Assembly: GCA_034660035.1 (NCBI GenBank)
Contig: JAYEIJ010000062.1
Location: forward strand, 11,522-75,521
DNA from: Actinomycetota bacterium
GTDB lineage: Bacteria > Actinomycetota > Acidimicrobiia > Spongiisociales > UBA5794
Direction of reading: 5' to 3'
Length of the DNA stretch: 64,000 bases
Shown here one piece after another: positions 7,639 to 31,067 of the stretch (within the stretch, counting starts at the first letter, position 1; every line of letters starts with the position of its first letter). Made by a program: the position numbers and the translations under genes. The notes beneath the pieces were generated by a model. It searched no databases, was not told where the DNA came from, and saw nothing but the letters and a program-made list of their open reading frames with translations.

Positions 7639-7757
7639 GCTCTCGCGCCTCCCGTGCTCGTGCTGTGTCCACAGCGTCGACGACGCACGCGAATCTAGCG
7701 CCCTGCTTGCCGGATACACTCTGCGAATGCGATCCGCGACCAGAAAGGGAATCGCGC

Positions 7758-8408
7758 ATGGACACCGATACCCCGACCCAGCCATCACTCCCCCGACTCA
7801 ACGAACCGGCTCCGGCATTCAGAGCCCCAACGACCCACGGCGTCAAGGAACTGTCGGACTACGCCGGCAAGTGGTTGGTTCTGTTCTCCCATCCGGCCGA
7901 CTTCACCCCGGTCTGCACGACCGAGTTCATGGCATTCGCGAACGCCTACGAGGACTTCCAGGCGATGAACACGGATCTCCTCGGCCTGTCCATCGACTCG
8001 CACTTCTCCCACATCGCGTGGACACGCACGATCGAAGAGAAGTTCGGCGTGAACATCCCGTTCCCGATCATCGCGGACCTCTCCATGGAAGTCGCGAACG
8101 CATACGGCATGATCCAACCCGGAGAGAGCGACACATCGGCGGTTCGATGCACCTTCATCATCGATGACAAGGGCGTTGTCCGGGCGATGGTCTACTACCC
8201 CCTCGCAAACGGGCGCTCGATCGCCGAATTCGTGCGTCTCGTCAAGGCACTGCAGACATCCGACGAGCACGGAGTTGCCACGCCCGAAGCATGGCAGCCC
8301 GGCGATCGGGTCATCGTCCCACCGCCGGCAACAGCAGCCGGAGCGAAAGCGCGACTCGAAGAGGGATATGACTGCATCGACTGGTGGTTCTGCACCAGGG
8401 AACTCTGA
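7758..8408 (+). CDS. peroxiredoxin (1-Cys Prx6-like, AhpC/TSA family)
   Basis: ORF 7665..8408, trimmed to ATG 7758 (MDTDTPTQPSLPRLNEPAPAF...). Has the FTPVCTTE peroxidatic Cys motif. AAAGGGA RBS. Confidence 0.85.
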   Translation: MDTDTPTQPSLPRLNEPAPAFRAPTTHGVKELSDYAGKWLVLFSHPADFTPVCTTEFMAFANAYEDFQAMNTDLLGLSIDSHFSHIAWTRTIEEKFGVNIPFPIIADLSMEVANAYGMIQPGESDTSAVRCTFIIDDKGVVRAMVYYPLANGRSIAEFVRLVKALQTSDEHGVATPEAWQPGDRVIVPPPATAAGAKARLEEGYDCIDWWFCTREL

Positions 8409-8480
8409 GCCATACGCGCTCTTCGGATTTGACTGGCGTGTGGGAAGAGTTGGTGGTGGGTCGGGTGATGGTTGGGAGAG

Positions 8481-8660
8481 CCCGTAGTAGGTAGTGGCGA
8501 AGTAGGTATGACGTAGTACGACTCGGAGGTCTTGTGTCGGTTGGTTGCGTGGTGTATCTGTGTACTGATGCACGACTATCGACAGCGAGGATGTCTCCCC
8601 CCCCCTGATCGGGGGTCGTACTACGTCATACGTCGTACGTACTACTCCCCGGTTCTCGCC
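8481..8660 (+). repeat. structured intergenic repeat element, copy A (MITE/REP-like)
   Basis: Terminal inverted repeats GTATGACGTAGTACGAC (8506-8522) and GTCGTACTACGTCATAC (8617-8633). An 18-nt block ACGTAGTACGACTCGGAG is identical to copy B (27574-27591, reverse). Near-palindrome GTCGTACGTACTAC. Poly-C tract. Confidence 0.6.
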
Positions 8661-8706
8661 GACCCCGCTCATTCCCGAAGGCTTCGCTATACGCGACATG
8701 CCCCAA

Positions 8707-17940: not shown

Positions 17941-17967
17941 ATACGGACTACGGATTACGGACTACGG
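17941..17967 (+). repeat. tandem heptad repeat TACGGAN x4 (ATACGGACTACGGATTACGGACTACGG)
   Basis: Direct read of the sequence. Lies 30 nt upstream of a small ORF. The same 13-mer ATACGGACTACGG occurs in reverse orientation at 30945-30957, upstream of garA. Confidence 0.5.
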
Positions 17968-26797: not shown

Positions 26798-27295
26798 TCA
26801 GTGAGCCGCTGCCGTCGATGCCTTCACCTCGCGCTCGCCCGGGGTCGCCCGGTCAGGGAACAGACGGTGGATCTCACCTACAAGCTCTTCTTGCACAGGT
26901 CCAACAGCGATCCCGAAGACACCCTGGCCACCGCGGAAAACGTCGACGACTTCGGACGGGCTGTGCGCCGCGTAGATCGTCTTACCATCGGAGAGCAGCG
27001 TGACATTGGACAGCGGACTCTCAGACTCCAGTTCCGCTCTCAGGATGTCCATCGCTCTGCGGATCTTCTTCAGCGACATGCCGGCATCGAGGAGGCGTTT
27101 CACCACCTTGAGCTGCACGATATCGGGGAAAGCGTAGAGCCGCTGGCTCCCCGACCCCGTCGCTTGCTGGAGCGACGGCGTGATGAGCCCGGTGCGGGCC
27201 CAGTAGTCGAGCTGACGATATGTGATGCCGACCAGATTGCACACCTGAGGGGCCCGATACCCATCGATGGCCTGATCGATCCTGCTATCCACCAT
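26798..27295 (-). CDS. MerR family transcriptional regulator
   Basis: ORF 26798..27319, trimmed to ATG 27295 (MVDSRIDQAIDGYRAPQVCNLVGITYRQLDYWARTGL). GGGAGG RBS. HTH of MerR type. Position matches the second MerR of the conserved actinobacterial garA locus. Confidence 0.75.
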   Translation of the reverse strand: MVDSRIDQAIDGYRAPQVCNLVGITYRQLDYWARTGLITPSLQQATGSGSQRLYAFPDIVQLKVVKRLLDAGMSLKKIRRAMDILRAELESESPLSNVTLLSDGKTIYAAHSPSEVVDVFRGGQGVFGIAVGPVQEELVGEIHRLFPDRATPGEREVKASTAAAH

Positions 27296-27435
27296 TTCCG
27301 TGTGCCTCCCAGTTCGCACAGCTTACATCAACGTAATTCCGCCAGCTGAACTACGGCGGTGAAACTAGGACAGGACGACACGCGTTGTCAACAACCTTTG
27401 TGGATAAGTCGCACTTCGGGAAAGCAGGGTCGGCT

Positions 27436-27596
27436 GGAACCGGGGAGACTACGGGCAGTAGTACGTCCTCCCAGTCGTAGTACGTATGACGTAGTACGTA
27501 CTACGAAGACGCGCGGACGGGGCAAAGCGGCGAGTGGTTCTGTTCCCCCCTCAGCCAGGGTCCACGGTTTCTCCGAGTCGTACTACGTTCACGCCG
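27436..27596 (-). repeat. structured intergenic repeat element, copy B (inverted relative to copy A)
   Basis: Contains the perfect 14-bp palindrome GTAGTACGTACTAC (27491-27504) and several GTAGTACG units. Its reverse complement shares ACGTAGTACGACTCGGAG and ...GTACTACTxCCCG...TCCCCGGTTC with copy A. Confidence 0.6.
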
Positions 27597-27612: not shown

Positions 27613-28110
27613 TCAAGAAGTCGAGTCGCGCTCGAAGTCGTCCGGCGTCACATCATCAAGGAACTCTCGAAAGCGCTCGATCTCCTCTTCTTCTGTGTCG
27701 TCGTGGATCTCGATGCCCGCTTCGTCGAGCAGCTCTCTCGATGCGAACACGGGCGCTCCCGCTCTCGTGGCCAGGGCGATGGCGTCTGAGGGTCTGGACG
27801 AGATCGTCAACTCCTCCCCCTCCGACTCGATGACGAGTTCGGCGAAGAACGTCCCTTCATCCAGCGACGTCACGTCGACCCTTTCGATGTCAGCGCCGAG
27901 AGCGTCGAGAAGCGTCTTCATCAGATCGTGAGTGAGGGGCCGGGCAGTCTCGACTCCTTCGAGGGCCAGAGCGATCGCCGTCGCCTCCGGCGTGCCGATC
28001 CAGATCGGAAGGTATCGAGCGCCCTCCCGCTCTCTGAGCAGCAAGATCGGCGTGTTGGTGGGGAGCTCCACCCGAACGCCGACGACTTCCATGGCAACCC
28101 GATCGTTCAT
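27613..28110 (-). CDS. bifunctional nuclease family protein (BFN, DUF151)
   Basis: 165 aa. MEVVGVRVELPTNTPILLLRE...LPIWIG signature of the DNase-RNase domain, plus an acidic C-terminal tail. Confidence 0.8.
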   Translation of the reverse strand: MNDRVAMEVVGVRVELPTNTPILLLREREGARYLPIWIGTPEATAIALALEGVETARPLTHDLMKTLLDALGADIERVDVTSLDEGTFFAELVIESEGEELTISSRPSDAIALATRAGAPVFASRELLDEAGIEIHDDTEEEEIERFREFLDDVTPDDFERDSTS

Positions 28111-28156: not shown

Positions 28157-28717
28157 TCAGTGGAGAGCGTGCCGGGCGAACGAATCCGGATCCGACGTGA
28201 GCACGGAGAGATCCATCACAGCCCAGATCGATGGAACGTTCCGGAAGCGTCCCCTCCAATCCATCCCGTACCCAAGGAGGAACTCGTCTCCGACCTCGAA
28301 TCCACGATGTTCAACGGGAACGTCCACGATCCTCCGCTTCACCTTGTCGAGGAGAGCGACCGTCGTCACGCTCTTGGCACCTCTGGCGGCCAACATCTTG
28401 CGCATGGTTGTGAGCGTCAATCCCGTGTCGACGATGTCCTCGACGATCAGCACCGAGCGCCCTTCGACCGGCACGGAGAGATCCATCGCGATCGAGACCC
28501 TCCCCTCACGCCCGAAACGCGTCAAACTCAGGAAATCGAGCTCGATCGTCAGCGGGAGATGCCGGGCGAGATCGGTCAGGAAAGGGACCGATCCCTTCAG
28601 AACTCCGATCACGACGGGATCGAGATCGGTCAAGCTCTCGGTGATCTCCTCGCCGAGCTCAGCGACCCGCTGCTGAAGCGCTCCCTCGTCGATGACCTCG
28701 ATGAACGGCTCGATCAT
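28157..28717 (-). CDS. hpt: hypoxanthine-guanine phosphoribosyltransferase
   Basis: ORF 28157..28810, trimmed to ATG 28717 (MIEPFIEVIDEGAL...). GGAGG RBS. PRPP-binding motif VLIVEDIVDTGLT. The ATG overlaps the stop of the upstream dacB (ATGA). Confidence 0.85.
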   Translation of the reverse strand: MIEPFIEVIDEGALQQRVAELGEEITESLTDLDPVVIGVLKGSVPFLTDLARHLPLTIELDFLSLTRFGREGRVSIAMDLSVPVEGRSVLIVEDIVDTGLTLTTMRKMLAARGAKSVTTVALLDKVKRRIVDVPVEHRGFEVGDEFLLGYGMDWRGRFRNVPSIWAVMDLSVLTSDPDSFARHALH

Positions 28718-29766
28718 CGGTCGCCTCCGGCCACGCTTGGCAAGGCTGCCTTCAACCACTCGCTGATCAACGACGCCTTCGGAAGGTCCGTCAATGCAGA
28801 CATTCGCCAACGTCCATCATCGATTCTCTGCATGGCTTGAAGCCGTCGCTCTTCGGATTCGGTCAGATCGAGGTTCGCGTTGACGGTCGCACCGCCGCCC
28901 TGCTCCGAGAAGAAGGGGCGCAACCATCGGTCATGCAGCCCATAGGTGCCGTATGCCCAGTCGATGAGTTCCCGCGTATCACTGAAGTGGTCGTCGGAAC
29001 CCATGACTACGGTCACGATTCTTCGCGGACCCCGTTCGGACACGCCGAGCAAGACCTTGTTCGCGAACGGCGTATCACCGGTCTTCAGCCCAACGACTCC
29101 TGGATACGTCCCGAGAAGCCGATTGGTGCTGTTGACGTGGCGCGTCTTGCCCGTTGGGTCTTCCGGCATCTTGATCGTCTTGATCCTGGCGATCTGCTGA
29201 ATATCCGGGTAGTCGAGCGAGGCAACCGTCATCGTGACCAGATCATTGGCGGTCGAGAAGTGGTCGGCATGATCGAGACCGTTCGGATTCACGAAGTGCG
29301 TGTCGCTCATGCTCAGTTCCGAGGCACGCGCGTTCATCTTCCCGACGAAGGTATCGATGTCTCCATCGCCGACGTGCCACGCCAGGGTCAGAGCTGCATC
29401 GTTCCCGGACCGGACGAGCATGGCAACCAGGAGGTCGTAGACCGTCCACTGCTCCCCCGCTACGAGACCGGCACTCGATCCCCGGCTCGCTGTTGCCTCC
29501 GACGGAATCGTCACGATCTCGTCGAGTTCGGCCTCATCGAGGACGATCATGGCGGTCATCACCTTGGTGACCGATGCCATCGGACGACGTTCGTCGGCGT
29601 TCCACGTCGTAAGCATCACATCGGCCGTCTCGTCGTACACGGCCCACTCGTACGCGGTCACGGTTGGAGGGAGTGGTGGCGCGATCGGTTCAATCGGCAT
29701 CGTGGCGGACGATCCGAGCGGTGCGAGGAGCGCGAGAACGAGCGTGGCGGTGGCAGTGGAGATCAT
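28714..29766 (-). CDS. D-alanyl-D-alanine carboxypeptidase (peptidase S11, PBP5-like)
   Basis: 350 aa. Signal peptide. SxxK motif (MASVTKVMTAMIVLD), SGN (SGNDAALTLA), and KTG (GLKTGDT). Confidence 0.8.
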   Translation of the reverse strand: MISTATATLVLALLAPLGSSATMPIEPIAPPLPPTVTAYEWAVYDETADVMLTTWNADERRPMASVTKVMTAMIVLDEAELDEIVTIPSEATASRGSSAGLVAGEQWTVYDLLVAMLVRSGNDAALTLAWHVGDGDIDTFVGKMNARASELSMSDTHFVNPNGLDHADHFSTANDLVTMTVASLDYPDIQQIARIKTIKMPEDPTGKTRHVNSTNRLLGTYPGVVGLKTGDTPFANKVLLGVSERGPRRIVTVVMGSDDHFSDTRELIDWAYGTYGLHDRWLRPFFSEQGGGATVNANLDLTESEERRLQAMQRIDDGRWRMSALTDLPKASLISEWLKAALPSVAGGDR

Positions 29767-30895: not shown

Positions 30896-31067
30896 GCTAC
30901 ATCAACCCTCGACCATTCCTTGAAGGTTTCGGCTTCGCAGTACTCCGTAGTCCGTATTCCGCGATCCGTACCGGACCCCTTGGCCCGCTCTTGGTTCTCA
31001 GCTCTTGGCTCTGGCTGTCCGCTGTCCGCAGTCCGCTTCTGCCTGTTGCCTGTCCCCTGCCCCCTAC

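Follow-up and report, generated by a model that had tools for sequence, protein, structure and literature searches.

The closest described counterparts of the repeat reported here are the MITEs and MICs of the ISL3 family (IS31831/IS1096/IS204-type) of Actinobacteria. These elements are small and free of a transposase gene, occur in multiple copies with internal deletions, are flanked by 8-bp target-site duplications (TSDs) and have terminal inverted repeats (TIRs) in common with autonomous ISL3 elements; the MICs have, in addition, a passenger gene. A second system with points of likeness is that of the rRNA intervening sequences, which sit in helix 9, 25 or 45 of the 23S rRNA gene. Their distribution is sporadic, and the ORF-bearing examples, found in Leptospira, Coxiella, Xanthomonas and Brucella, contain a gene of the intervening-sequence protein (IVP) family PF05635 inside long terminal inverted repeats that are able to form a stem. 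This layout, a long stem around the IVP ORF, is excised by RNase III, and the intervening sequences are regarded as selfish, with an unresolved origin for which both transposon-remnant and mobile-element hypotheses have been proposed (PMC4990558). The analyses described here indicate that the repeat between the bfn and merR genes of an Acidimicrobiia genome, copy B, is very probably a dead, 5'-truncated copy of a family of non-autonomous, ISL3-mobilised elements in a clade of uncultured Acidimicrobiia.

The window, by which we mean the whole 64-kb stretch of DNA that was analysed, contained eight exact matches to the motif GTAGTACG against 0.27 expected, a count that was reached in 0/100 shuffles. 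All eight matches fell in two clusters, one at 8513-8645 (copy A) and the other at 27458-27586 (copy B), and the five matches of copy B were on the plus strand at 27458, 27477 and 27491 and on the minus strand at 27497 and 27579. The initial annotation had described copy B as a repeat with a perfect 14-bp palindrome, further GTAGTACG units and a G6/C6 tract in a 317-bp gap between bfn and merR, and all of these were present, the gap extending from the bfn stop at 27613 to the MerR ATG at 27295. The box that it had drawn for the repeat (27436-27596) did enclose a genuine copy; its extent required correction to that given in Table 1, as the TIR at 27410-27435 lay outside the box. The reverse complement of copy B had also been said to align with copy A from end to end, which it does not, as only an 18-mer that is identical in copies A and B and a 3' module of ~90 nt align. 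The cores of the two copies (~60-90 nt) are unrelated, and copy A reaches ~95 nt further 5' than copy B. Their C/G runs are non-homologous, being C9 in copy A, where the run is made up of proline codons and the stop codon of an ORF remnant, and G6 in copy B (each on the sense strand of the element).

Table 1. Features of the two element copies in the window, and target-site duplications at other loci.
Feature	Position	Strand	Sequence or description
Copy A	8417-8674	+	complete 258-bp miniature copy with both TIRs, both arms and the leader
Left TSD of copy A	8409-8416	+	GCCATACG
Right TSD of copy A	8675-8682	+	GCTATACG
Copy B	27410-27595	-	186 nt; very probably a 5'-truncated, ORF-less copy of the ISL3-type MITE/MIC family
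3' TIR of copy B	27410-27434 (27435)	-	GCCGACCCTGCTTTCCCGAAGTGCG on the minus strand
3' arm of copy B	27448-27508	-	7-nt-periodic CGTACTAC/GTAGTAC units; palindrome GTAGTACGTACTAC inside, at 27491-27504
Unique core of copy B	27509-27570	-	62 nt; G6/C6 run inside (C6 at 27545-27550)
Conserved 18-mer	27571-27588	-	ACGTAGTACGACTCGGAG; last 5' arm unit and start of the internal leader
Probable right copy of the 8-bp target site	27402-27409	-	ACTTATCC; abuts the 3' TIR
Conserved merR upstream block	27296-27409	-	GACTTATCCACAAAGGTTGTTGACAACGCG...GGAAATG; outside the element
TSD of L015			GGTTTACG, perfect
TSD of L046			ATCAATGC, perfect
TSD of L176			GCTAGCGC, perfect
TSD of L180			AGATTATG, perfect
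TSD of L143			ACCAATGG, perfect
TSD of L070			GCATAGAC, perfect
TSD of L042			AGTT[C/T]GAC, 7/8
TSD of L044			CTT[C/T]TCTG, 7/8

The genes around copy B are, in order on the minus strand, pgsA, gcvH, garA, an ftsR-type MerR gene, peptidase S11, phosphoribosyltransferase, bfn (27613-28110), the gap and merR. The locus had been annotated as a contiguous garA-ftsR-bfn-merR block, which was incorrect in that the peptidase S11 and phosphoribosyltransferase genes stand between ftsR and bfn. These two genes (28157-29766, minus strand), the first of which encodes a D-Ala-D-Ala carboxypeptidase, have the same placement in all relatives. The start of merR is the ATG at 27295, giving a 165-aa protein that matches all relatives.

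Homologues of bfn that were 89-97% identical identified 12 orthologous loci in related Acidimicrobiia metagenome bins (L001-L011 and L175). Gene order was kept in 12/12 of these loci and the bfn-merR gap was 136-144 bp, as against 317 bp in the window, and none of the 12 contained the element or a cluster of GTAGTACG units. The locus is therefore polymorphic for the insertion. It had been reasoned beforehand that the same sequence at the same place in relatives, with no repeat copies elsewhere, would indicate a conserved regulatory region; the relatives showed the reverse, with the element absent from every orthologous locus and its copies dispersed. The proposal that copy B is an inserted repeat element was supported both by this absence and by the TIRs and TSDs of its family, described below.

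What the relatives did retain was a block of ~115 nt upstream of merR (Table 1), which is nearly invariant in those with bfn 89-97% identical, while the first 20-30 nt past the bfn stop could not be aligned among them. Since the relatives lack the element and keep the block, the element is placed precisely between the stop of bfn and the upstream boundary of the merR block. We interpret the conserved block as the true merR regulatory region. Read on the minus strand, a perfect DnaA-box-like TTATCCACA is followed there by TTGTTGACA; an imperfect dyad, GACAACGCGTGTCGTC, and what may be a hairpin, CCGCCgtagttcagctGGCGG, are also present, and the block has the look of a promoter and leader under strong constraint.

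These comparisons bear directly on the suggestion that the MerR-family regulator encoded downstream uses the palindromic GTAGTACG units as its operator. In favour of this, the units precede merR on the strand of that gene, and the perfect 14-bp dyad is among them. However, the orthologous merR genes have the near-invariant upstream block and no GTAGTACG units, and the dyad is ~195 nt upstream of the merR start codon, outside the conserved block and missing from 12/12 orthologous loci. In addition, copy A lies between two convergent genes, so there is nothing at that site to regulate, and GTAGTACG units are present in dozens of unrelated intergenic sites. The palindrome itself was found in just one other of the 181 loci examined and is not a feature of the family. 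We give the operator suggestion almost no credence; the GTAGTACG units and palindrome of copy B are the internal inverted arrays of the element, and the MerR operator is to be sought in the conserved upstream block.

Copy B carries the conserved 18-mer of the family, which had 40 exact matches in a collection of one genome per species, with ~37 of these in ~13 Acidimicrobiia/Actinomycetota bins. There were up to 8 copies per bin, and one such bin holds the closest orthologous locus, L008. The copy-number search that had been suggested for the repeat thus returned a family with dozens of copies in related genomes. Many of the matches were <100 nt from contig ends, which fits a repeat at which assemblies break. 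Three matches (L031, L038 and probably L037) look like chance occurrences in ordinary sequence without other parts of the element; the match in a bin labelled Kiloniellales (L029) is a real copy. An origin from a phage or plasmid was also considered and was rejected, based on there being no match to the 18-mer in viral contigs and no match to the 160-nt 5' module in plasmids.

Members of the family are 131 to 579 nt long, and tblastn identified no transposase in them. The full element, of ~560-580 bp, consists of a TIR of ~30 bp (GGCTCTTCGGATTTGGGCGGGGTGTGGCG), a spacer of ~50 nt, a 5' array, a leader of ~60 nt, a 118-aa gene, a 3' array and the second TIR. Complete copies start GGCTCTTCGGATTTGGGCGGGGTGTGGCGAAGAG and finish ...CCGACCCCGCTCATTTCCGAAGTGCC, and these ends are imperfect TIRs of ~30 bp (GGCTCTTCGGATTTGGGCGGGGTG...). 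Both TIRs were identified in copy A, L015, L042, L044, L046, L176 and L180. The complete copies are flanked by 8-bp TSDs (Table 1), with agreement at 8/8 positions at L015, L176, L180, L120 and L143. A TSD of 9 bp, which could be read from five copies, was rejected because the ninth base differs in L070, L090, L143 and L180.

The 5' array has a 7-nt period (ACGTAGT ACGTAGT ACGAATG ACGTAGT ACGAC...) and the 3' array is its inverted form. The GTAGTACG units that had first drawn attention to the repeat are units of these arrays, and their number differs among copies and also between both arms of one copy. Arm units of 7 or 14 nt vary in a microsatellite-like manner, with four ACGTAGTACGAATG in L039 (2274-2345) and four CGTCGTACGTCATA in the 3' arm of L017, and such variation was also seen in the 5' arm of L113 and L028. 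In most of the other copies, part of the ORF is deleted internally or the core is a different one. At L012, L019, L047, L062, L020, L027 and L036, unrelated G+C-rich cores (for example, ...GGCACCTCCCCCACTTCGTGAGGGAGGAG...GGGGGAGATGGGCCGAGG...) replace the IVP gene between the same arms and TIRs, and the frame of the element seems to accept different cargoes.

A second motif in the window, TACGGAC TACGGAT TACGGAC TACGG, has the same 7-nt period as the ACGTAGT arrays of the element and was found at 17942-17967 (plus strand) and 30945-30972 (minus strand). With one mismatch or fewer, TACGGACTACGG had 4 matches in the window against 0.19 expected. One of the TACGGAC arrays is upstream of a small ORF and the other is in the gcvH-garA spacer, where it is kept in the closest relative (L008) and not in more distant relatives.

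A degenerate pattern of the family TIRs was identified at more than 120 metagenome loci. Among the matches listed, most were elements of ~1.4 kb with GGCTCTTCGGATTTCAGCGGGGTGTGA... at both ends and an ORF of 424-470 aa, and an ISL3 transposase was identified by tblastn in 92 of 120. The ORF of the model copy, L060, matched PF01610 (DDE_Tnp_ISL3) with an E-value of 3e-51, and also has the ISL3 zinc ribbon and HTH domains (PF14690 and PF13542). Perfect 8-bp TSDs were found at nine of the ~1.4-kb insertion sequence copies and at least five MIC/MITE copies, and the TIRs of the MITEs differ from the commonest insertion sequence TIR at ~3 of 27 positions. The G+C content was 56-68% in the host flanks of the insertion sequence copies and 63% in the window. 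The ~1.4-kb ISL3 insertion sequences have no GTAGTACG units; it follows that the arrays are part of the cargo rather than of the ends to which the transposase binds.

Within the window, the orthologous loci and 40 Acidimicrobiia loci (~200 kb), we identified no gene for an ISL3 transposase. Because the TIRs and the length of the TSD are common to ISL3 elements, we infer that an ISL3 DDE transposase probably acts in trans to move the family. On the same grounds, the long, gene-bearing forms would be MICs and the short, gene-less forms, such as copy A, would be MITEs. Several other internally deleted ISL3 derivatives were observed (L120, 732 bp; L088, 939 bp; L168, 677 bp; L146, 315 bp; L097, 1240 bp); these have no GTAGTACG arrays, several have perfect 8-bp TSDs, and this ISL3 clade evidently spawns MITEs repeatedly.

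The family resembles the described MITEs and MICs of ISL3 type in being equally small and transposase-free, with 8-bp TSDs, in having TIRs that begin GGCTCTTC and are common to autonomous ISL3 elements, in being multicopy with internal deletions, and in that its long forms have a passenger gene, as in MICs. It differs in the nature of the passenger, which is an IVP gene flanked by inverted 7-nt arrays that ISL3 elements do not have, and in its hosts, which are uncultured Acidimicrobiia in which mobilisation is read from sequence. Every MITE or MIC trait that was tested at the level of the family is in place: the copies are small and have no transposase gene (copy B, 186 nt; copy A, 258 nt), they are dispersed (two in the 64-kb window), and there are TSDs and empty sites, with TSDs of 8/8 in the family, a TSD of 7/8 together with an empty site (L052) for copy A, and the absence of copy B from 12 loci.

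The same ends decide against a REP/REPIN-type repeat, that is, a doublet of GTAG-headed palindromes spread by a RAYT (Y1) transposase. Such a repeat would account for the GTAG contained in the units and for the two 17-nt inverted repeats of copy A, which give a REPIN-like hairpin with a loop of ~90 nt. To our knowledge, REP/REPIN elements have neither TIRs nor TSDs, whereas the complete copies of the family have ~30-bp TIRs in common with ISL3 insertion sequences, with 8-bp TSDs alongside. An unsystematic look also revealed no Y1 transposase. These TIRs and TSDs led us to discard the REP/REPIN assignment, whose chance of being correct we consider to be minimal.

Copy A was the better preserved of the copies in the window, matching our HMM of the 5' module with an E-value of 8.6e-35 and that of the 3' module with 5.6e-24. 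It retains a remnant of the IVP gene, consisting of the first ~7 and last few codons, with the ATG at 8568, and the two copies of its TSD agree at 7/8 positions. Copy A is placed between the convergent peroxiredoxin and trkH genes. A relative with shared synteny at this locus (L052; M23 peptidase, YceI, peroxiredoxin and TrkH) has a peroxiredoxin-TrkH spacer of 52 nt. The corresponding spacer in the window is 328 nt, and subtraction of the element and one copy of the TSD is reported to give the 52 nt of L052, which on this count represents a length-exact empty site for copy A.

The 1-Cys peroxiredoxin gene beside copy A (7665-8408, plus strand) had best matches of 77-79% that bear Gammaproteobacteria or Hyphomicrobiales names, three short contigs at 88-91% identity having been set aside from that list. 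This Acidimicrobiia lineage may have gained the gene by horizontal transfer, and its product is probably a protein of 216 aa rather than the 247-aa ORF. The contig of its closest homologue (L054, 91%; L054:1155-1170) stops 15 nt past the stop codon, at the point where copy A starts in the window, which is consistent with, but not proof of, assembly failure at an element copy.

Copy B matched positions 43-124 of the 3'-module HMM (E-value of 1.7e-14) and had no match to the 5' TIR. Its 3' TIR departs from the 3' end of the family, CCGACCCCGCTCATTTCCGAAGTG(CC), at 4 positions and is 88% complementary to the equivalent end in copy A. When the core of copy B was searched with blastn-short against all collected loci, it resembled the core of none of the other copies. 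Only the 3' TIR is present in copy B, whereas copy A and the complete members have both, so copy B is assigned as a truncated member of the family. As its left TSD is missing, the duplication of its target site is deduced and not observed, and its transposition is likewise deduced, from the family and from the absence of copy B in relatives.

The right junction of copy B reads ...CCCGAAGTGCG|ACTTATCC, and the octamer ACTTATCC, which occurs once in every relative, is where the conserved merR upstream block begins. The left junction reads ...GCGTGAAC|GTAGTACGAC. Canonical copies read ...GGAAC|GTAGTACG at the first 5' arm unit, and the flank in the relatives ends in GAAC. Based on these junctions, we propose that an element of the family would have inserted at the octamer, 3' of the bfn stop and directly 5' of the merR promoter block. 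A deletion at the GAAC microhomology would then have taken away the left TSD together with the 5' TIR and the greater part of the 5' arm, leaving a copy that would no longer be able to transpose. It is the 4 nt of homology at the left junction that points to this deletion history. Copy B is most likely functionless and neutral.

The closest relatives may hold a further trace of these events. L008 and L010 read CGAAGTGCC|ACTTATCC, and CGAAGTGCC is identical to the last 9 nt of the TIR. In L009, whose bfn protein is the same as that of L008 and L010, the site reads CGAACACCG|ACTTATCC, and the 4 differences in 5 bases between L008/L010 and L009 recreate exactly the last 5 bases of the TIR. Since CGAAGTGCC equals the end of the TIR, the site in L008 and L010 is possibly the remnant of a deletion rather than a site that was never occupied. 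This short motif suggests that the insertion may be older than the split, and that the L008 lineage may have lost nearly all of the element by deletion at CGAA. The more distant relatives (L001-L007 and L175) have no trace of the element at the site. The remnant reading alters the timing of the insertion and not the nature of copy B.

With its inverted arrays, the element may form a stem if it is transcribed, and cleavage of this stem by RNase III is plausible. We therefore considered whether it could be primarily a structured RNA (a small RNA, a terminator or stabiliser of bfn, or a stem processed by RNase III) in which the repeats are kept for pairing. Both copies in the window folded more strongly than shuffled sequence (z = -4.4 for copy A and -4.0 for copy B), as any element that has inverted arrays should. 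Copy B follows bfn closely on its 3' side and shares its strand, and the long stem around the IVP ORF in the family is the layout of the rRNA intervening sequences that are excised by RNase III (PMC4990558). However, selection for RNA structure was not seen in the pairing or covariation of the arms of 28 distinct copies: 80.7% of the 24-bp arm helix was paired versus 80.6% in column shuffles, and the covariation score was equalled or passed by 115/500 shuffles. One mismatch column, in which 5' GAATG faces 3' CATAC, is itself conserved, and the numbers of units are unequal between the two arms of one copy. Rfam gave no match for the window at gathering thresholds, for copies A and B at E ≤ 1 or for L035 at E ≤ 0.1. 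A simple scan found no terminator-like site, and consensus promoter and terminator scans around copies A and B found nothing. The TIRs, TSDs and empty sites also show that the copies spread at the level of DNA, and we regard a primary role as a structured RNA as quite improbable.

The transposable element reading leaves the IVP gene of intact relatives as the sole unusual trait of the family of copy B. In the long copies, a 118-aa ORF starting at ATGCACGACTATCGACAGC lies between the inverted ACGTAGT arrays. The product of this ORF in L035 matched PF05635, the 23S rRNA intervening-sequence protein, with an E-value of 1.9e-30, and the Xanthomonas protein XCC0516 (PDB 2gsc) with an E-value of 7e-23; the cargo is thus a gene of the four-helix-bundle family PF05635. 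A search for IVP homologues identified dozens of intact relatives of 107-118 aa that are 80-97% identical. In L176 and L180 the cassette is intact: the ORF and the two TIRs are in place and the TSD is perfect. L178 has an intact ORF and a recognisable 3' TIR, with no 5' TIR found at the threshold used. The IVP ORF is enclosed by inverted repeats in L035, L176, L178 and L180, whereas copy B has none of the ORF and copy A has its terminal codons only. We know of no function for the IVP/S23p gene family.

The cargo of the element belongs to the same protein family, PF05635, as the ORF of the 23S rRNA intervening sequences, and in both systems the ORF is inside long, stem-capable terminal inverted repeats and the distribution is sporadic. 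In contrast to the intervening sequences, members of the family are between protein-coding genes and their ends are ISL3 TIRs with TSDs, and the ORF has been lost in copies A and B. Copies A and B are both outside rRNA genes (between peroxiredoxin and trkH, and between bfn and merR, respectively), and the window had no rRNA match. As elements of the family are located outside rRNA, they are not intervening sequences themselves. It is tempting to speculate that the inverted 7-nt arrays and the IVP gene are nonetheless the same kind of module as the ORF-bearing 23S rRNA intervening sequences, moving here as cargo of an ISL3 cassette, although we consider this unlikely on present evidence. A further possibility is that a pentamer of IVP binds the 7-nt arrays of its own element.

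Another system related through this protein is that of the diversity-generating retroelements, whose accessory protein Avd is of the same four-helix-bundle superfamily as IVP. PF05635 and "intervening sequence protein" are reportedly mentioned in a review of these retroelements (PMC10053308). The family differs from Avd and the diversity-generating retroelements in that no reverse transcriptase and no template or variable repeats were beside the element at the loci examined. Moreover, the signature of movement in the family (TIR and TSD) is that of a DDE transposase, whereas diversity-generating retroelements move by retrohoming. A full-text literature search, of incomplete coverage, found no IVP/PF05635 gene linked with MITEs, MICs or ISL3 cassettes, a negative that is weak evidence of novelty and hints that the family has been undescribed so far.

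For the locus, these findings mean that the long bfn-merR gap would be a junk insertion and that the control region of merR would be the conserved block downstream of it, and annotation and regulon work should disregard the palindrome. At the level of the family, they point to a previously undescribed MITE/MIC family of uncultured Acidimicrobiia, as far as we could check, which breaks metagenome assemblies, with many of its copies at contig ends, and whose copies can, by their presence or absence, serve to tell close lineages apart. Wider interest is confined to the IVP gene that the element has as cargo. A family that moves with TIRs and TSDs and has an IVP gene inside inverted repeats makes the origin of the rRNA intervening sequences testable. 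If the two modules were indeed of the same kind, the TIRs, TSDs and empty sites of the family would be the first concrete support for rRNA intervening sequences having begun as transposable elements.
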